A stretch of 24,000 nucleotides of DNA from Chromatiaceae bacterium (GTDB taxonomy: Bacteria; Pseudomonadota; Gammaproteobacteria; Chromatiales; Chromatiaceae). The stretch is taken from assembly GCA_013426805.1 (NCBI GenBank), contig JACDZG010000011.1, positions 4,942-28,941 of the forward strand, written 5' to 3'. The notes beneath the pieces are model-generated. The model searched no databases and was not told the origin of the DNA. It saw only the letters and a list, made by a program, of their open reading frames with translations. This document shows, in pieces, positions 5,831 through 14,500 of the stretch (the first letter of the stretch is position 1; each line of letters starts with the position of its first letter). The translations under genes and the position numbers were made by a program.

Positions 5831-6012
5831 CCATCAATAAAGGGGAGATCGACGCCATCGGCCAAGTGCATTCACTGGAGTCACTCATCCGCCTGCCGCC
5901 CGGTCGCTCCCTGCTCACATTGCTGGATGACCAAGCGAATGAGCCAGCCCTGTTGGCAGAGACGTCGCTGGCCAAAGATCGGGATGCGGCGACCACTGGA
6001 GACACACCATGA
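5827..6012 (+). CDS. possible 61-aa protein bridging vapC and the ATPase (GTG start)
   Basis: The GTG at 5827 overlaps the vapC stop (GTGA) and its stop overlaps the ATPase ATG (ATGA at 6009..6012). No family recognised. Could be non-coding spacer in an open GC-rich frame. Confidence 0.3.
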   Translation: MTINKGEIDAIGQVHSLESLIRLPPGRSLLTLLDDQANEPALLAETSLAKDRDAATTGDTP

Positions 6013-7085
6013 TCGAAAGCGTCGAGCTCAAAAATTTCGGCCCCATTGTGGACTTCGCCTGGCGCGATCTCTCGCCGATCAATCTGGTCATCGGGCGTAA
6101 CGGCACCGGCAAGACCTTCCTGCTCAAGGCGCTGTATTGTGCGCTCCGGGCACTGGAAGAAAAACGCGGCGACGAGCCGATGAGCTCCGGGGAGATCCTG
6201 GAGAAGAAGCTCTTTTGGACCTTTCAATATGACAACCTCGGGGATTTGGTGCGAAGCGGCTCCGCTGCCGACCTGTCCGCGAAGGTCATGCTGCGGTGGC
6301 CGATGTTTCCGCTCGAGCCGGCAAAGCCGCTCGCCTTTTCGATCCCCCAGAACGCCAAGCGGGGCGATGTCCGTTTCAAGAATCAGGCGATCAGAACCCC
6401 TAACTACACTTCGATTTTCATTCCCGCTAAAGAGGTTCTCTCTTTGCACAATGTGATCCAGCGGACGCGCCGGGACCTGCGCTTGTTCGGCTTCGACGAT
6501 ACCTATCTGGATCTTGTCGACGCCTTGAGCTATCAACCAGACGTCCTCGACTATCCGCAAGGCGTAGCGCAGCCGATGTCAGCGCTTCACCAGCGGGTTG
6601 GTGGCCGTGCCGATTACGATCTCGTCATGACGCCATCTCAGGGCATTCCGATTCCTCAAAGCGTCTGGCGCTTCCGCGTCGGCGATCGGGAGCACGCAAT
6701 CGGTCTGGCGGCCGAGGGTGCCCGCAAGCTCGCAGTCTTGGATCGTCTTCTGCGTAACCGCCAGCTACGCAGAGGGTCGATTCTGTTTGTCGATGAGCCC
6801 GAGTCGACGCTGCATCCGGAGGCGATCACCGCTTTTCTCGATGTGCTTTATTCATTGGTCGAGGCGTTCGGCCAGGATATTCAGATCTTCCTCGCAAGCC
6901 ACTCCTATTTTGTCGTCAAGAAACTGTATCTGATCGCCCAGGAGAAGGGAATCTCGATTCCCGTGGCCATGGCCGAAGGGGACCACTGGGAGACCGCCGA
7001 TCTGAAGGACGGCATGCCTTCCAATCCCATTATCGATGAGTCTATCCGGCTTTACAAAGAAGAAGTGGACCTGGTGTTGAAATGA
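6009..7085 (+). CDS. ABC/AAA_21-type (RecF/SMC-like) ATPase
   Basis: N-terminal IESVELKNFGPI, Walker A GRNGTGKT, signature-like LAAEGARKL, Walker B/D-loop ILFVDEPESTLHP, H-loop FLASHS. GGAG RBS lies 8 nt upstream. Confidence 0.85.
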   Translation: MIESVELKNFGPIVDFAWRDLSPINLVIGRNGTGKTFLLKALYCALRALEEKRGDEPMSSGEILEKKLFWTFQYDNLGDLVRSGSAADLSAKVMLRWPMFPLEPAKPLAFSIPQNAKRGDVRFKNQAIRTPNYTSIFIPAKEVLSLHNVIQRTRRDLRLFGFDDTYLDLVDALSYQPDVLDYPQGVAQPMSALHQRVGGRADYDLVMTPSQGIPIPQSVWRFRVGDREHAIGLAAEGARKLAVLDRLLRNRQLRRGSILFVDEPESTLHPEAITAFLDVLYSLVEAFGQDIQIFLASHSYFVVKKLYLIAQEKGISIPVAMAEGDHWETADLKDGMPSNPIIDESIRLYKEEVDLVLK

Positions 7086-7609
7086 ATGTTGGGGCGATTG
7101 TCGAGTCTGGCATGTCCTTCGGACCGTACCCTCAGGGGCACTGCTTCCATATCGAACGCAGCCGACTGTATGGGCGGATCGCGCACGGCGTCAAGATGGC
7201 TGAGATGATCGTGTTGCCTTGCGCCGCTGCCGATCCACCGCGCCTGTGGATCATCGAAGCGAAGTCGAGTACACCCCGTCCGGAGACGCAGCCGAGCTTC
7301 GACGACTTTATCTGCGAGATCCGCGGCAAGCTGATGAACGCCTTGACGCTCTTGATTGCGGCCTCGCTCGGACGACATGAGAACGGGCGCGACGCGCTTC
7401 CCGAGACCTTCAAGACGACCGATTTTGCTCGGGCCGACTTTCGGCTGGTGCTGGTCATCAACGGACACCAGGATGCTTGGTGCGTTCCCTTGCAGGATGC
7501 GTTGTCCAAAGCGCTGCACGCGACCGTGAGAACCTGGGCGCTCAAACGGACGTCGGTTGCGGTTATCAACGATGCCACGGCGCGACGATATGGACTGATT
7601 GATCTTTGA
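7082..7609 (+). CDS. small protein with a putative PD-(D/E)xK (restriction-endonuclease-like) core; partner of the ATPase
   Basis: ATGA overlap with the ATPase stop. A hydrophobic strand KMAEMIVL is followed ~12 aa later by LWIIEAKSS (ExK on a beta-strand-like segment), the usual spacing of PD-(D/E)xK motifs II/III. No other family recognised. Confidence 0.5.
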   Translation: MNVGAIVESGMSFGPYPQGHCFHIERSRLYGRIAHGVKMAEMIVLPCAAADPPRLWIIEAKSSTPRPETQPSFDDFICEIRGKLMNALTLLIAASLGRHENGRDALPETFKTTDFARADFRLVLVINGHQDAWCVPLQDALSKALHATVRTWALKRTSVAVINDATARRYGLIDL

Positions 7610-7684
7610 TCACCGATCAGGGCGGCGAGTCGAAGGTAACCCGATGTTGCGTACCATCGCATTAGCGATCTACGTTGGGGCCAA

Positions 7685-7830
7685 GGGCCGTAGCTTGGGG
7701 TGAGAAGCGAAATCCATACGCTTGTGCCGCTCCGTTGGGCTTCCCCGCGCCCCGACACTCCGGCGTCGCGTGGCTAATCGGGCCGCTGGAGCGGCCAAGA
7801 CTGCATTCCCACGCGGAGCGTGGGAACGAG
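7685..7830. repeat. copy 2 of the ~140-bp structured REP/MITE-like repeat
   Basis: See 5021..5158. The terminal hairpin here is TTCCCACGC-GGA-GCGTGGGAA. Translation gives the HAERGNE/PRGAWE-type pseudo-peptides typical of such repeats in GC-rich gammaproteobacteria. Confidence 0.85.
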
Positions 7831-7891
7831 ATGGTTCCGATTGCGATGATCGCACGCCGCCGGCGTGCACTACTTATCAGGAGACCAAGCA

Positions 7892-8080
7892 ATGCAAACC
7901 GCAAAACAACAAGCCGAATCAGTGCTGCGGCACCTGCCCGACAACTGCACCCTGGAGGATATCCAGTATCATCTCTATGTGCTTGAGAGGATCGGCAACG
8001 GTCGGAACGATATCGAGGACGGTCGCTCATTCACGGCTGACGAGGCGAAAGAGCGTCTGGCATCATGGCTGCCGAACTGA
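7892..8080 (+). CDS. putative type II antitoxin (partner of a ParE/RelE-type toxin)
   Basis: 62-aa ORF with AGGAG RBS ~8 nt upstream of the ATG at 7892 (track ORF starts at GTG 7865). It overlaps the start of a ParE/RelE-like reading frame by 16 nt. The C-terminal EDIQYHLYVLERI...DIEDGR...EAKERL pattern is seen in small antitoxins. Confidence 0.55.
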   Translation: MQTAKQQAESVLRHLPDNCTLEDIQYHLYVLERIGNGRNDIEDGRSFTADEAKERLASWLPN

Positions 8081-8223
8081 TCTGGGCGCTGGAGGCGCTC
8101 GACGATATCGATGCGATGGCCCGCTATATCGCCCGCGATTCGGCGGTCTACGCCCGGCGCGTCGTCTTGGAGATGCTCGAACTTGGTGAGTTATTCCTGA
8201 CGCAGCCGCTGAATCGATCATAA
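8065..8223 (+). pseudogene. truncated ParE/RelE-family toxin (52 codons, roughly the N-terminal half)
   Basis: MAAELIWALEALDDIDAMARYIARDSAVYARRVVLEMLELGELFLTQP matches the ParE/RelE N-terminal helices (i.w...A..dl..i..yia.d.p..A.r.v..i......L...P). The beta-sheet half carrying the catalytic residues is absent and the frame stops at 8221..8223. Confidence 0.6.
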
Positions 8224-8259
8224 CCCGACGATATTCAAGCTAAGTTTGCGGAGAGGTCC

Positions 8260-8331
8260 ATGCTCACAATCAGCATGTTTTACGGCATCATCGTCCGGAT
8301 GCTATTCATGGACCACAAGCAACACAATCTG
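8260..8331 (+). pseudogene. DUF4160-family gene stump (first 24 codons only)
   Basis: MLTISMFYGIIVRMLFMDHKQHNL matches the DUF4160 N-terminus (M..Is.FyGI.I.Myf.DH.pPH.H). GGAGAGG RBS upstream. Homology stops at the AT-rich element starting at 8333, and the open frame then runs into it and stops at 8383..8385. Confidence 0.6.
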
Positions 8332-8332
8332 C

Positions 8333-8447
8333 TAAGTACATCAATACAATTGTTTGTATTAAAAGTAATTCTCGTAATATGCTAAAACTATATTTATCAG
8401 CGGCTTATAATAATTGTGTATTACAAATAAATTTATTGATGTACTTA
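8333..8447. mobile_element. AT-rich 115-bp MITE-like element with terminal inverted repeats
   Basis: TAAGTACATCAATA (8333..8346) and TATTGATGTACTTA (8434..8447) are perfect 14-bp inverted repeats that extend imperfectly to ~28 bp. The interior is extremely A+T-rich in an otherwise G+C-rich context. A TA dinucleotide sits at both extremities. Confidence 0.5.
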
Positions 8448-8551
8448 TGTTTCCCGATGTGATCGCTGTCGTCCCGCAGCCGGGTCATCGGTTGGAGTTG
8501 ACCTTCGCCAACGGCGAGCGCCGCCAATTCGACATGACCCCTTACCTTGAC
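8447..8551 (+). pseudogene. DUF2442-family gene, 5' fragment (35 codons), interrupted by the IS200/IS605 element
   Basis: MFPDVIAVVPQPGHRLELTFANGERRQFDMTPYLD is a DUF2442-like N-terminus (v..v.p..d..L.l.F.dG......dl). It continues in frame at 10329. Confidence 0.7.
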
Positions 8552-8631
8552 CCGGTGCGCGGCAAGCCCCGCCGTTCAGGGCGGGGAAGGATAGCGCGGG
8601 GTGCGTATTCGGGACCGGGGCCGGTCCCGTC

Positions 8632-9045
8632 TTAGTGCGGGGTTTGCTGTTGTTCGATGTACTGGCGCACGATGGAAATCGGGGCACCACCGCAGGACGC
8701 GGCGAAGTAGGAGGGCGACCAGAGAACGCCCTTCCAGTAGCGCCGCTGGAGGTCCGGCCGCTCTTGGCGTAGCAACCGGCTGGACACGCCCTTGAGGCTG
8801 TTCACCAGGGCGGACACCGCCACCTTGGGCGGGTACTCGACCAGCAGGTGAACATGGTCGTCCTCGCCGTCCATCTCCACCAAGGTGGCCTCGAAGTCGG
8901 TGCAGACCTTGGCGAAGATAGCGCGCAGGCTGGCGATAGCCTCGCCGTCGAAGACCTTGCGGCGGTATTTCGCCACAAAGACCAAGTTGACGTGCATCGC
9001 AAAAACGCAGTGCCGCCCGTGCCGAATGTCGTTGTCGTTGCTCAT
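8632..9045 (-). CDS. tnpA: IS200/IS605 Y1 (HUH) transposase TnpA
   Basis: HUH motif DHVHLLV, catalytic Tyr region LWSPSYFAASCGG, length 137 aa from MSNDNDIRHGRH (track ORF extends 14 codons further upstream). Confidence 0.9.
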   Translation of the reverse strand: MSNDNDIRHGRHCVFAMHVNLVFVAKYRRKVFDGEAIASLRAIFAKVCTDFEATLVEMDGEDDHVHLLVEYPPKVAVSALVNSLKGVSSRLLRQERPDLQRRYWKGVLWSPSYFAASCGGAPISIVRQYIEQQQTPH

Positions 9046-9058
9046 AGACCAATATACT

Positions 9059-10294
9059 ATGGACATGCAGCGTCTCCAAGCCTTCAAGTTCGAGTTGATG
9101 CCCGACGGCGATCAGGCGCGCGACATGCGCCGCTTCGCCGGATCGTGCCGCTTTGTCTTCAACCGGGCGCTGGCGATACAACAGGCGTTGCACGAGCAGG
9201 GGGCGAAAAAGCTCGGGTATCCGGCGCTGTGCAAGTGCCTCACCGAGTGGCGCAACAGCCCGGAAACCGCATGGCTCGCAGAGGCCCCGGTGCATCCGTT
9301 GCAGCAGACCCTCAAGGACCTGGAGCGGGCCTATACCAACTTCTTCGCCAAGCGCGCCGACTTTCCCCGCTTCAAGAAGAAAGGCCGGTCCCGCGACAGC
9401 TTCCGCTACCCCGACCCGAAACAGATCAAGCTCGACCAGGCCAACGGGCGCCTGTTCCTGCCCAAGCTGGGTTGGCTGCGCTACCGCAACAGCCGCGATG
9501 TGCTCGGCACGGTGAAGAACATCACCGTCAGCCAGTCGGGCGGCAAGTGGTTCGCGTCGATCCAGACCGAGCGTGAGGCGGAGATCCCGGTTCACCAGGG
9601 CACGGCCGTCGGGATCGACCTGGGCATTGTTCGCTTCGCTACCTTGAGCGACGGCGCAGTGTTCGAGCCCCTGAGCAGTTTCAAACGTCAGGAACAGGCG
9701 TTGGCGAAGGCGCAGCGCGCCATGAGCCGCAAGACCAAGTTCGGGAAGAACTGGAAGAAGGCGAAAGCCCAGGTCCAGCGCATCCATACCAAGATCGCCA
9801 ACGCCCGGCGCGACTACCTGCACAAGACCACGACCACGATCAGCCAAAACCACGCGATGGTGTGCATCGAGGACTTGAAGGTTCGCAACATGTCGGCGTC
9901 GGCGGCCGGGACGATCGAAGCGCCGGGTACCAACGTTCGGGCCAAGTCCGGCCTGAACAAAGCCATTCTCGACCAGGGTTGGTTCGAGTTCCGCCGACAA
10001 CTGGACTACAAGACGGCGTGGAGCGGTGGGCACCTGGTCGCGGTGCCCCCACAGAACACCAGCCGAACCTGTCCGTGCTGCGGGCATCTCGCCAAGGAGA
10101 ACCGGCAGACTCAAGCCCGGTTCGCGTGCGTGGAATGCGGTTTCGAGGAAAACGCCGATTTAGTCGGCGCGATCAATGTTCTAAGGGCGGGACACGCCCG
10201 GTTAGCCTGCGGAGAGACTTCGCTCATTGGAGCGTCGGCCCAGGAACCCGCCGAAGCGACTATTCGCGAGCAAGCTTTGCGCGTAGCGCCGTAG
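9059..10294 (+). CDS. tnpB: TnpB (IS605 OrfB-type RNA-guided nuclease)
   Basis: N-terminus MQRLQAFKFELMP. RuvC motifs are VGIDLGIV, VCIEDLKV, NADLVGAINV. Zinc finger is CPCCGH...CVECGF. Start taken at ATG 9059 (the upstream part of track ORF 8885.. is antisense to tnpA). Confidence 0.9.
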   Translation: MDMQRLQAFKFELMPDGDQARDMRRFAGSCRFVFNRALAIQQALHEQGAKKLGYPALCKCLTEWRNSPETAWLAEAPVHPLQQTLKDLERAYTNFFAKRADFPRFKKKGRSRDSFRYPDPKQIKLDQANGRLFLPKLGWLRYRNSRDVLGTVKNITVSQSGGKWFASIQTEREAEIPVHQGTAVGIDLGIVRFATLSDGAVFEPLSSFKRQEQALAKAQRAMSRKTKFGKNWKKAKAQVQRIHTKIANARRDYLHKTTTTISQNHAMVCIEDLKVRNMSASAAGTIEAPGTNVRAKSGLNKAILDQGWFEFRRQLDYKTAWSGGHLVAVPPQNTSRTCPCCGHLAKENRQTQARFACVECGFEENADLVGAINVLRAGHARLACGETSLIGASAQEPAEATIREQALRVAP

Positions 10295-10344
10295 GAATCG
10301 CCGTCCTTCAGGTCGGCGAGGATGTCAATATCCGGTCTTCCAAC
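10130..10344 (+). ncRNA. predicted TnpB omega-RNA (scaffold overlapping the tnpB 3' end and RE, plus ~16-nt guide read from the flank)
   Basis: Inferred only from the established architecture of TnpB loci. The RE hairpin 10298..10319 and the element end at 10328 are visible. The 5' boundary is a guess. Confidence 0.3.
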
Positions 10345-10490
10345 GGCTCCGGAATCCCGGTTTTTTCGGCTTGGCCCGGGTAGCGTACGGTACCGTGACC
10401 TGGCCCGGTGAGATCGATATCGCCCCCGAAACCCTCTATGTCGAGGCGGTGCCGGAATGCGACGATGAAAAGGAGTCGATCTCACTGTGA
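10329..10490 (+). pseudogene. DUF2442-family gene, 3' fragment (53 codons plus stop)
   Basis: YPVFQRLRNPGFFGLARVAYGTVTWPGEIDIAPETLYVEAV... carries the DUF2442 C-terminal signature (vF.pL.dp..F..v.v...gtv.WP.g.DiaPe.LY). It is in frame with 8447..8551 once the IS is removed. Confidence 0.7.
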
Positions 10491-11467
10491 CTTCGCCATT
10501 TCAGGAACCGCTCATGGACACCCAGCCGCCCAACCCGGACTTTGCCGACCGCGCCCGCGCCGCCCTGCTCGCCCACGCCTGCGGCGACCGCTTCGGTGCG
10601 CCGCTGGAGTTCGTATCGGATCTCAGCGTGCGGACGCGCGCGGTCCACTTGGGCAATTGGACCGACGACACGCACATGTCGCTGTATCTCGGCGAGGCGC
10701 TGCTGGCCTATGGTCCCATCACGGACCAATCACCCTTTGCGGCTGATCGGTTCGGGACCCTGGTGGGTGAGGCTTTCGTGCGCTGGCTGCATGATCCACT
10801 GACTCCGACTACCGCACCCGGCAACACCTGCCTGACCGGTGCACGCCATTTCGAGCGTGACCGTGACTGGAAAACCAGCGGGATCCGATCGTCCGACGGT
10901 TGCGGGGCGGTGATGCGCATCGTTCCCATTGGACTCGCCTGGCGCGGGGAGGCGCTGCTGGAGGCGGCCCGGGTCTCGGCCCTGGTCACCCACGCGCATC
11001 CCAATGCGCTGGAAGCGGCGATGGCCGGGGCCTGGCTGGTCGGGCGGATTCTGGAGACCGGGGTCTGGGGCGCGGCCTGTGTGGAAGACGCGATCCGGCA
11101 TCTGGATGGACCCTGGAGTCAGGGCGGGAACCTGGCCGAGAGTCTGAGCGCCGCGCTGGACTGGGCGCAGCGGGGCAAGGAGTGGCTGGACGAGCCGGCG
11201 ATTCCACTGGGTGACGGCGGCTGGCGCTCGGGCAGCGCGTTGGGGCTCGCGGTGGCCGCGGCACTGCGCTGGCCCGACGACCTGGGGTTGGCGATCGAGA
11301 AGGCAGCGCGGATTCAGGGCGATTCGGACTCGGTGGCCTGCCTGACCGGCGCCCTGCTGGGGGCGGCCCTGGGGACAGCGGCGATCCCGCCGGCATGGCT
11401 CGCGACGCTGCCGCGGCGCGCCGAGATCGCCGGTCTGGCGGATCGGTTGGCGGCCATCAGGGCGTAG
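10487..11467 (+). CDS. ADP-ribosylglycohydrolase (ARH/DraG) family protein
   Basis: ARH motifs are ACGDRFGAPLEF, WTDDTHMSL and the C-terminal GDSDSVACLTGALLGA. The track start is a GTG overlapping the DUF2442 stop. An ATG at 10514 with AGGA 7 nt upstream is an equally good start. Confidence 0.8.
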   Translation: MTSPFQEPLMDTQPPNPDFADRARAALLAHACGDRFGAPLEFVSDLSVRTRAVHLGNWTDDTHMSLYLGEALLAYGPITDQSPFAADRFGTLVGEAFVRWLHDPLTPTTAPGNTCLTGARHFERDRDWKTSGIRSSDGCGAVMRIVPIGLAWRGEALLEAARVSALVTHAHPNALEAAMAGAWLVGRILETGVWGAACVEDAIRHLDGPWSQGGNLAESLSAALDWAQRGKEWLDEPAIPLGDGGWRSGSALGLAVAAALRWPDDLGLAIEKAARIQGDSDSVACLTGALLGAALGTAAIPPAWLATLPRRAEIAGLADRLAAIRA

Positions 11468-11575
11468 CTGCGGTCAGGACGATCGCATCAAACCAAGCGC
11501 TGAGTGCTGAGTGCGCTGTTAAGGTTTACCCTAACCAGCGGCTAACCCTGCCGTCGACTATGGACCCCGTTCGCC

Positions 11576-14500
11576 ATGCCCAGCACACCGGCCCCGTCAC
11601 CCGACCAAGACCCGTTTCTCTTCGACAGCGAGCAGATCCATGCGCTGGCCCCGCCCGGGCTGATTCGCAGCGCGCTGCGGCATTGCCAAGACAAACGCGT
11701 CACCGCGCTGGACTCGGACGGCGAGCGGCTGTGGGCGCGGGTCGAGGATGCGGAGACCGAAGCGCAGTTGGATCTGACCCTGGGCTATGACATCGATGGG
11801 AATCTCCGCTGCGAGTGTCAATGCGAAGCGGATCCGGACGGGCTCTGCGTGCATGGCCTGGCGGCCCTGTTTGCCCATAGTCAGGCGAGCGGCAGCGCCG
11901 GGGCGCTGACCGGGGCCGTGGCGGGCGCGATCGAGGAGCGTGCACTGCGCGGGCGCACCGAGGTGCAGGTGGAGCCGGTGTCGGGCGGCGATTGGCTCGG
12001 GACCTGGCGGGCGCGGTCCATCAATCCCACCGGGTATCTGCCCACCAGCTATCTGGTACACATCCGCTCGCTGACCCGCCGTGCCAACTGGTGCACCTGC
12101 CCGGACTTCGCCACCAATCAGCTCGGCACCTGCAAGCATGTGGAGGCGGTGCTCCATCGGCTGCGCAAACGCAAGGGCTTCAAGAAGGCCCGAGACGGGG
12201 CTCCGGACACCGCCTTCGTCTACCTGGATTGGGAGTGTGAGAACGCGCCGGCCGTGCGGTTGCAGCGCGCGGGTGAGACGAGCGTCGAGTTGGCGTCGCT
12301 GCTGAACGAACACTTCGACGCGGCTGGGGTCTTCCGGGGGCGGCTGCCGGACGGGCTGTTGCGGCTTGCCGATACCCTGGCTGGACGGCCCGATATCGAA
12401 ATGGGCGAGGACACCCTGGGCTTCGCCCGTCGACTGGCGGAGGACGCCGCCCGCCAGATCCGGGCGCAGGAGATCGGCGAGCGCATTCGCGCCGGCGGCG
12501 GGCGCCTGCCGGGTGTGCGGGCCACCCTCTATCCCTATCAGGTCGACGGGGTCGCCTTTCTGGCCGGACGCGGGCGTGCGCTGCTCGCTGACGACATGGG
12601 TCTGGGCAAGACGCTTCAGGCCATTGCCGCCGCGCATTGGCTGCACCAGCACGATCAGGTGGAGCGGGTACTGGTGATCTGTCCGGCCTCGCTCAAACGC
12701 CAATGGGCGCGCGAGATCGCCAAGTTCACCGGCGCCGAGGCGGAGGTGGTGCAGGGGCCGGTGGCGGGGCGCGCCGTCCAATACCGCAAAGGGACCGGCT
12801 TTTATGTCATCAACTATGAACTGGTGTTACGCGACCTGAGCCTGATCAATGAGACGCTGGGTCCCGATCTGGTGATCCTCGACGAGGCGCAGCGCATCAA
12901 AAACTGGCGCACCCGGATCGCCTCGGCGGTGAAGCAGATTCCCTCGCGCTATGCCTTTGTGCTCACGGGTACGCCCCTGGAGAACCGCCTGGAGGATCTC
13001 TACAGCCTGATGCAGGTGGTGGACCCGCGCGTACTCGGACCGCTGTGGCGCTATCTGGTCGATTTCCACATCACCGATGAACGCGGCAAGGTGCTGGGCT
13101 ACCGTAATCTCTCCGAACTGCGCCGCCGCCTGACCCCGGTGATGCTGCGTCGTGACCGCAGTCTGGTGCGCGATCAGCTTCCGGAACGGATTGAACAGCG
13201 GCTCGACTGCGCGCTGACCCCCAAGCAACAGGAAATCCACGACGAGGCCGTCAATGCCGCGGGCATCCTGGCGCAGATCATGAAGCGCCGGCCGCTGACC
13301 CCGTCCGAACAGAACCGCATGATGGCCGCGTTGCAACGGGCGCGCATGGCCTGTGATGCCGCCGGTCTGGTGGACAAGGAGACCGAGGGCTCGCCCAAAC
13401 TCGACGAGCTGGAGACGATTCTCGATGAACTGTGCCGACTGTCCGGGCTCAAGGCCGTGGTTTTCTCCCAGTGGGAACGCATGACCGAACTGGTGGAGCA
13501 GCGGGTGCGGCGCATGGGGCTGGGCTCGGTGCGGCTGCACGGCGGTGTCCCCAGCGCCAATCGCGGGGCGCTGATCGACCGTTTCCACGATGACGACGCG
13601 GTGCAGGTCTTCATCTCCACCGATGCCGGCGGTGTCGGCCTCAACCTGCAATGCGCCTCCGTGCTGGTGAATCTGGACATTCCCTGGAATCCGGCGGTCC
13701 TCGATCAGCGCATCGCCCGGATTCACCGGCTCGGTCAGCGCCAGCGGGTTCAGGTGATCCTGCTGGTGGCCCCGGACTCCTATGAGGAGCGGGTCCTGGG
13801 TCTGGTGCAGGGTAAGCGCGTGCTGTTCGACAATGTGGTGGACCCGGAAGCGACCGAGGACGTGGTCGATGTCTCCAAGCGGCTGGCCGAGGTCCTGGCC
13901 GGGGATCTGGCGGGTCCGGATGAGCGGGGAGCGACCGAGCACGCGGCCTCCGCCGAGCCTGAGCCTGAGCCTGCCGCGGACCTGCCCGCGGTCGAGCCGC
14001 CGGCCGCCCTCGCCGCGCCGGAGGACGAACCGAGCGTCGCGACGCCAAGCGACACGGCAGCATTACCCGAGCCGCCGCGCGGGTCACTCCCCACCGAAGC
14101 GGTGCGCGGCTGCATCATCGCGCTGCAAGACCGCTTCGGTACGCGGATCGAGCGCATCCTGGCCAGCCGCGGCGGGCTGCTGGTGGTGATGGACAGTACC
14201 GACGCGGAGGCCGACCAATTCGCCGAGGGGCTGTCGGATCAGCTCCCGATCGCGCTGATCGACCGCCGCACCCTGGCCGGGCTCCAACGGCTCGGGGCGG
14301 CCTCGCCGGCGGCGGAGGGCGAGATCCTGTTCGAGGCGGGGGCCGCACCGGTTCCCGTCGAGGGTCATCCCCTGGCCCGTCAGGCCCAGGCCAAGCTCGA
14401 GGGTGCTCGGGTGCTGCTGGCGCAGACCCAAGCCGGAGCCGCGCTCGGTGGGCCGGCGCTGGACCTGCTGCTCGGTGCCCTGCTGTGCGCCGCGGCGCTC

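Follow-up and report, generated by a model that had tools for sequence, protein, structure and literature searches.

A probable autonomous IS200/IS605-family insertion sequence 3' of TTGAC within a DUF2442 gene of a Chromatiaceae bacterium

The element and the gene that it interrupts

The window, by which is meant the whole 24,000-nucleotide stretch of Chromatiaceae bacterium DNA analysed here (G000:C49:4942-28941, from the 7.6-Mb draft assembly G000 of 349 contigs), contains a complete element of the IS200/IS605 family, which lies on the forward strand at 8552..10328 inside a gene encoding a DUF2442 protein. The element is 1777 bp long, has a G+C content of 63 %, and is delimited by the empty site in G009, a genome of the same genus, as well as by other copies. 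It carries two divergent genes with 13 bp between their start codons: tnpA (8632..9045, reverse strand; 137 amino acids), encoding a Y1 HUH transposase that matches the full PF01797 profile (E 3e-43), and tnpB (9059..10294, forward strand; 411 amino acids), encoding a predicted RNA-guided nuclease with the Pfam domains OrfB_IS605, Cas12f-like TNB and HTH_OrfB_IS605. Terminal inverted repeats are absent, subterminal imperfect palindromes are present at both ends, the element was inserted 3' of a defined 4-5-nt target, which was not duplicated, and related copies with differing flanks indicate the mobility of the group, which is shown for the copies of relatives. An IS605-type identity had been proposed from the sequence alone (hereafter the original prediction), and it is upheld by the Pfam domains of both encoded proteins, the subterminal hairpins and the duplication-free insertion. 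With a probability of about 0.9, the element is an autonomous IS200/IS605-family insertion sequence with IS605/IS608-type ends, inserted 3' of TTGAC within the DUF2442 gene, and as such it is an ordinary example of a very common and well-understood transposon family.

The interrupted gene persists as a 5' half of 35 codons (8447..8551, forward strand), which terminates in ...CCTTACCTTGAC, and a 3' half of 53 codons and a stop codon (10329..10490, forward strand), which starts with TATCCGGTCTTCCAAC. These halves match PF10387 over profile positions 1-30/72 (25.1 bits) and 29-70/72 (26 bits), respectively, each exceeding the gathering cut-off of 23.9 bits on its own, and neither contains a stop or a frameshift. 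The joining of 8551 to 10329 produces an open frame of 88 codons. In G009, the DUF2442 gene is uninterrupted (88 codons; Pfam profile 1-71/72, E 1e-15), and the joined halves are 95.5 % identical to this allele, with no gap over the junction; at this orthologous locus, the downstream ADP-ribosylglycohydrolase gene and its flank are also 95.5 % identical over 2.6 kb. Four more intact homologues (G017, G015, G014 and G005), which are 80-83 % identical, are likewise colinear at 8551/10329. The colinearity of the five intact alleles at the junction means that host bases were neither duplicated nor lost. The in-frame bisection without target-site duplication and the 88-amino-acid joined product that had been predicted were thus both recovered, and the comparison with intact homologues that had been proposed as a check, once run, aligned all five over the junction without a gap.

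An insertion at the same site was absent from every other genome searched. The joined DUF2442 gene differs from the G009 allele at 12 of 267 nt (4.5 %), with 3 amino-acid changes, and the flank likewise differs by 4.5 % over 2.6 kb. The earlier claim of a recent insertion is compatible with the open halves and with this flank-like divergence, which weakly favour a lineage-specific over an ancient insertion; the event is not dated thereby, as 88 codons cannot date it.

The ends of the element were taken from relatives because no other full copy was found in the same 349-contig assembly. In ten separate copies from related genomes, similarity stops at ...GAGGATGTCAA, with unrelated DNA beyond, and GAGGATGTCAA is invariant in 60/60 public loci with a locatable right end (60 of the 80 loci kept), the flank after it being always unrelated. 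On the left, four copies in relatives open with the same CCGGTGCGCG and are preceded by ATGAC, TTGAC, TTTAC and CTGAC. These shared ends identify 8552 as the first and 10328 as the last base of the element. The predicted termini are therefore fixed separately by the G009 empty-site allele and by many copies in relatives, whose ends, when compared as the original prediction had advised, were found to be those of the window element.

Directly 5' of the first element base, and outside the element according to the empty site, lies TTGAC (8547..8551, forward strand), which corresponds to the TnpA target, or predicted left cleavage site (CL), and is the putative target-adjacent motif (TAM) of TnpB. 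The left end (8552..8586, forward strand) consists of a 15-nt linker that ends in the left guide (GL) CAAG (8563-8566), followed by an imperfect palindrome (8567-8586). The right end (10294..10328, forward strand) comprises an invariant GGAAT, which is the candidate right guide (GR), a hairpin (10298-10319) and then GGATGTCAA, with the predicted cleavage site TCAA at 10325-10328. The left hairpin begins 15 nt inside its end and the right hairpin is followed by 9-10 nt to the terminus; the TCAA ending and the subterminal hairpins, placed 15 and 9 nt inside the left and right ends by the original prediction, can be read directly in the sequence. Both hairpins are kept in more than 50 relatives, the right stem with compensatory changes.

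In IS608 of Helicobacter pylori, cleavage sites are recognized via 4-nt guides located just 5' of the hairpins and not by the protein; the left site is positioned 19 nt before the foot of its hairpin, and TCAA follows the right hairpin within 10 nt (PMC3201880). The spacing in the window (left, TGAC plus 15 nt, i.e. 19 nt; right, 9-10 nt) matches IS608 at both ends. The two elements also share a Y1 HUH TnpA, subterminal imperfect palindromes, a target-setting 4-nt guide located 5' of the hairpin, and duplication-free insertion 3' of the target (PMC3201880). They differ in that the window element has the target TGAC/TTGAC with the GL CAAG, whereas IS608 has TTAC with AAAG, and in that the window element resides in a G+C-rich host genome. 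The tnpA and tnpB genes are divergent in the window, whereas those of IS608 are co-directional.

When the window was compared with 64 related left ends, the GL CAAG was found to be flanked by the target TGAC in 37/39 cases, AAAG by TTAC in 11/12 and CAAA by TGAT in 7/9. This comparison of left ends indicates that the guide tetranucleotide tracks the target across relatives, an observation that is new here. In CAAG-type copies, TGAC is preceded by T, C or A, but never by G; together with the GL CAAG, this flank pattern defines the insertion target as HTGAC, represented in the window by TTGAC. Among the exceptions, L074 has the GL CAAA, yet a TGAC flank and a TnpB with the cysteine at position 58 that is discussed below, and L029 has the GL CAAG adjoining TTTAC; in both, the left-end guide may have mutated after insertion, which would block excision.

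The original prediction had named either TTAC or TTGAC as the target, and of these TTGAC was retained and TTAC was not. TTAC is the target of IS608, is used by close relatives such as the G015 copy, and is present 6 nt upstream (8542-8545), so that, were it the target and TAM, the true left end would lie 6 nt further left and CTTGAC would fall inside the element. However, the G009 empty allele retains six bases, CTGGAC, at this position in a colinear and gap-free alignment, in the copies with the same start the DNA that precedes (H)TGAC is unrelated, and the GL is the TGAC-type guide CAAG rather than AAAG. A TTAC target is therefore barely conceivable; it was rejected as already contradicted by the empty allele and by the GL class, its occurrence six bases upstream being a coincidence. 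TTGAC is missing from the site in all five intact alleles; G009 has CTGGAC there, and the others have CTCGGC or CTCCGC. The leucine codon is CTT in the window and the synonymous CTG in G009, so the target motif is present solely in the allele that was hit.

Encoded proteins and the putative guide-RNA region

TnpA aligns with the IS608 TnpA (2a6m) at E 4e-23; its H64-V-H66 is aligned with the HUH motif, and its Y129 with IS608 Y127, which is the catalytic residue (PMC3597680). TnpB aligns with the ISDra2 TnpB of Deinococcus radiodurans (8bf8/8exa) over 386 residues at E 3e-56. Its residues D187, E271 and D367 align with the ISDra2 motifs GVDVG, TEHL and RDEN, so that the RuvC triad, which we take to be D191, E278 and D361 in ISDra2, is kept, and the CxxC motifs of a zinc finger are found at 338 and 357. 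Judged by these alignments, the catalytic motifs are intact in both TnpA and TnpB. HMMER places 15 extra residues of the window TnpB between ISDra2 residues 287 and 288, adjoining a loop (281-296) that was not modelled in the structure of ISDra2 TnpB (PMC10097598).

The putative omega-RNA scaffold (10166..10328, forward strand) includes the 3' end of tnpB as well as the right end, its 5' limit being approximate (about 10166-10183). It would be followed by a 16-nt guide, TATCCGGTCTTCCAAC (10329..10344, forward strand), which coincides with the start of the 3' half of DUF2442 and is positioned according to the established model, in which the right-flank sequence after the right end acts as the guide (PMC8612924, PMC10097598). 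The original prediction had placed the guide in the approximately 16 nt after the right end, and this position follows from the exact right end, which is invariant in relatives.

When the last 180 nt were aligned from 30 diverse relatives and analysed with RNAalifold, 31 pairs in 7 helices were obtained, with compensatory double changes in 17 of the pairs. Standard pairs occupy 95.8 % of cells, compared with 38-47 % when the partners are slid by 1-3 columns, and 0/500 shuffles reach any observed pairing measure. Double changes that preserve pairing are not explained by coding constraint, though the region partly encodes the TnpB C-terminus. A conserved RNA structure that ends at the right end is strongly supported by this covariation. 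The right-end hairpin is one of the RNA helices (helix 7) and so probably has a dual role, serving TnpA as a signal in single-stranded DNA and forming a stem in the RNA. A 3-bp long-range helix, in which GUC at -5 to -3 pairs with an upstream GGC, shows no compensatory changes, and its resemblance to the ISDra2 pseudoknot (PMC10097598) is unproven.

An Rfam scan returned no family at the gathering score. The closest similarity is to HgcC/sotRNA, with a weak match at 10183-10341 that extends over the 3' end of tnpB and over the right end and includes the conserved GAGGA.GUCA tail; at 25 bits, it lies far below the gathering score of 50, and the region is therefore not a member by the Rfam criterion. 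The HgcC RNA class has been linked to the 3' ends of IS1341-type tnpB genes (PMC4615843).

The 16-mer guide is unique in the genome, where no second target was found and near matches are no commoner than for a reversed control. G009, G017 and G014 carry exactly these 16 bases after the junction, and the five intact alleles keep 14-16 of the 16. These alleles would match the guide, yet lack the putative TAM (TGGAC in G009, L035:1496-1500; CGGC or CCGC in the others).

The window element shares with ISDra2 the size and architecture of TnpB, including the RuvC triad and the zinc finger. It would further share an omega-RNA that takes in the 3' end of tnpB along with the right end, a guide derived from the right flank, and a 5-nt TAM that equals the TnpA target (PMC8612924, PMC10097598), all three being predicted ones in the window. 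The differences comprise the TAM itself (TTGAT in ISDra2, putatively TTGAC in the window), the 15 extra residues of TnpB, a longer scaffold, and the residues C58, V78, H79, P120 and K121 in place of S56, K76, F77, T123 and N124.

The location of the guide inside a host gene, along with the documented domestication of TnpB proteins (PMC10705468), might suggest that tnpB encodes a domesticated, nuclease-independent regulator (TldR-like) that represses transcription by means of a flank-derived guide. This is very improbable, given that RuvC D187/E271/D367 and the zinc finger are intact, that tnpB lies within a complete transposon with tnpA and both ends, and that the guide differs at each insertion site.

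Target class and TAM-contact residues in relatives

The residues Y52, S56, K76, F77, Q80, T123 and N124 of ISDra2 TnpB contact the TAM (PMC10097598), and HMMER maps them onto Y54, C58, V78, H79, Q82, P120 and K121 of the window TnpB. The corresponding positions were compared in a panel of 51 relatives, whose target class was defined separately from the left end (37 TGAC, 7 TTAC and 7 TGAT). Residue 58 is C wherever the -1 base is C, and A in 7/7 TGAT elements, while residue 79 is H wherever the -3 base is G, and Q in 7/7 TTAC elements, in which the -3 base is T. Residue 121 is K in TGAC and TGAT elements and Q (once Y) in TTAC elements. At residue 82, Q is invariant, as is the -2 A that it would read, and residue 54 is Y in 49/51. 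Just 3 of the 411 columns (79, 119 and 121) set the TTAC elements apart perfectly. That TnpB residues at TAM-contact positions follow the target class is likewise new here.

The number of target-class changes depends on the part of the protein from which the tree is built. At least 7 changes are required on the whole-TnpB tree and 8 on that of residues 131 to the end, compared with 2, the minimum, on the tree of residues 1-130, where TTAC and TGAT each occupy one side of a branch with a support of 99; the TnpA tree, built to see whether tnpA goes with the specificity-setting part of the element, rests on a short protein, is poorly resolved and gives 5. These counts therefore indicate mosaics and not a simple clade effect. 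The mosaic nature of the elements, which is also new here, leaves the tip of the left end matched to that part of TnpB which would read the TAM. Much of this coupling could arise without selection because the left end is physically linked to the 5' part of tnpB. The coupling of residues and target is suggestive support for a TTGAC TAM, short of proof.

A similar pattern is seen when the window element is compared with the TTAC-type copy of G015. Identity is 64 % over element nt 1-100, 87-95 % over nt 101-600, 71-80 % over nt 601-900 and 96-100 % over nt 901-1777, which suggests a recombination breakpoint near window position 9450. It is conceivable, at slightly less than even odds, that within this very widespread clade of insertion sequences (TnpB 69-93 % identical) target specificity constitutes an exchangeable module, in which the GL and a few TAM-contact residues switch jointly while the RuvC half, the scaffold and the right end recombine freely. 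The window element would itself be a recombinant, with a TGAC-type left part and a right part that is 96-100 % identical to TTAC-type copies of two congeners.

Distribution, surroundings and proposed working

Related sequence is present in 11/60 related genomes, and a scan of public genomes returned more than 558 loci in Gamma- and Betaproteobacteria with a TnpB amino-acid identity of 69-83 %. The relatives also contain deletion derivatives (L008/L026; L018 in G017; L009 in G035; L011 and L020 in G004), some of which lack part or all of tnpA. One of them, G017:C1:154800-155576, is reduced to the left end, 113 nt from the interior and the final 360 nt, which include the omega-RNA region; solo right-end pieces of about 200 nt are found as well. 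The deletion derivatives could represent non-autonomous elements similar to palindrome-associated transposable elements (PATEs) that still bear the guide-RNA scaffold.

Within the host genome, a right-end relic (L002; G000:C49:422-465, reverse strand) lies 4.5 kb left of the window start and 13 kb from the element. It comprises 44-52 nt, is identical over 44 nt, lacks the terminal GATGTCAA (the last 8 nt) and anything upstream, and its upstream bases match a variant of the G004 copies. A second tnpB (L005; G000:C89:24330-25418) is 39 % identical and has an open frame with all three Pfam domains.

The element is located among a series of small modules in decay. DUF4160, the partner gene that precedes DUF2442 (window 8260-8446), is cut after codon 24, while the G009 copy is intact (89 amino acids, E 2e-23). 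About 219 bp, comprising the rest of DUF4160 and a spacer (G009 L035:1187-1405), have been replaced by a 117-bp palindromic element of 23 % G+C with 13-nt terminal inverted repeats, AAGTACATCAATA, which supplies the base preceding the DUF2442 start codon. A second copy, 80 % identical, is located at G000:C31:24835-24951, and the 117-bp element looks like a miniature inverted-repeat transposable element (MITE). Further upstream, a ParE-like frame (8065-8223) stops after 52 codons and matches the Pfam ParE_toxin profile over 1-43/89 at E 0.0014, below the cut-off. In G010 (L036), the matches to window 7751-8212 and to 10464 onwards are about 930 bp apart, and this interval shows no match to window 6000-13000, including the DUF4160/DUF2442 pair. 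The ParE/DUF4160/DUF2442 spot appears to swap small modules between species.

According to the proposed working of the element, it would insert as single-stranded DNA immediately 3' of TTGAC, and TnpA would precisely excise the top strand as a single-stranded circle. The donor would then be resealed, with TTGAC directly followed by TATCCGG..., and the DUF2442 frame would be restored. The omega-RNA, reading through the right end into the flank, would supply TnpB with its guide, and the complex would recognize the TTGAC TAM and the 16-nt match at the resealed site and cut there. Repair by recombination with the sister chromosome that still carries the element would reinstate it (PMC10055086). 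Under this established model, TnpB would act with a TTGAC TAM.

Several observations weigh against this reading. Since four of the seven ISDra2 contact residues differ (V78, H79, P120 and K121), the TAM is not transferable by homology, and a transfer of the ISDra2 TAM by residue identity was rejected. Another TnpB with a predicted TTGAC TAM, a Deinococcus paralogue, showed no detectable editing activity in one study (PMC12415229), and a literature search for TnpB with TTGAC yielded nothing beyond this protein. Folding energies of the single sequence are ordinary for this G+C content (z -0.7 to -1.7); as such z-scores are uninformative in G+C-rich DNA, covariation was used instead. In the minimum free energy fold, bases 1-5 of the guide can pair with a scaffold GGAUG, and this predicted pairing, if real, could reduce access to the guide. 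Finally, with one full copy in a draft genome, recent mobility in this host is not demonstrated.

The last point raises the question of whether the element is an intact-looking but inert relic of one insertion, with neither transposition nor an active TnpB-omega-RNA complex in the present host. That it is the sole full copy in a 7.6-Mb genome, that the contig also contains a degraded piece of a right end and the other tnpB of the genome is just 39 % identical, and that the surroundings are full of decayed genes would all be expected of a relic. Nevertheless, both reading frames are open with all catalytic residues present, both ends match the family consensus exactly, and the close identity of the right half to copies in two congeners suggests recent spread, so that an inert relic is considered unlikely, and an autonomous insertion sequence is preferred.

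As the mechanism is already established, the element adds an example and a test set rather than a new principle. Its insertion explains the split DUF2442 gene, which precise excision could restore. It also provides a fully delimited natural triplet of TnpB, the putative TAM TTGAC and a guide, together with a matching empty site. Dozens of closely related elements with TGAC, TGAT or TTAC as their target constitute a comparative panel for the residues that determine the TAM specificity of TnpB, as well as for the manner in which the TnpB TAM is kept in line with the target that TnpA selects through DNA-encoded guidance. If the residues identified are causal, they would represent a natural two-residue code that switches the TnpB TAM among TTGAC, TTGAT and TTAC.

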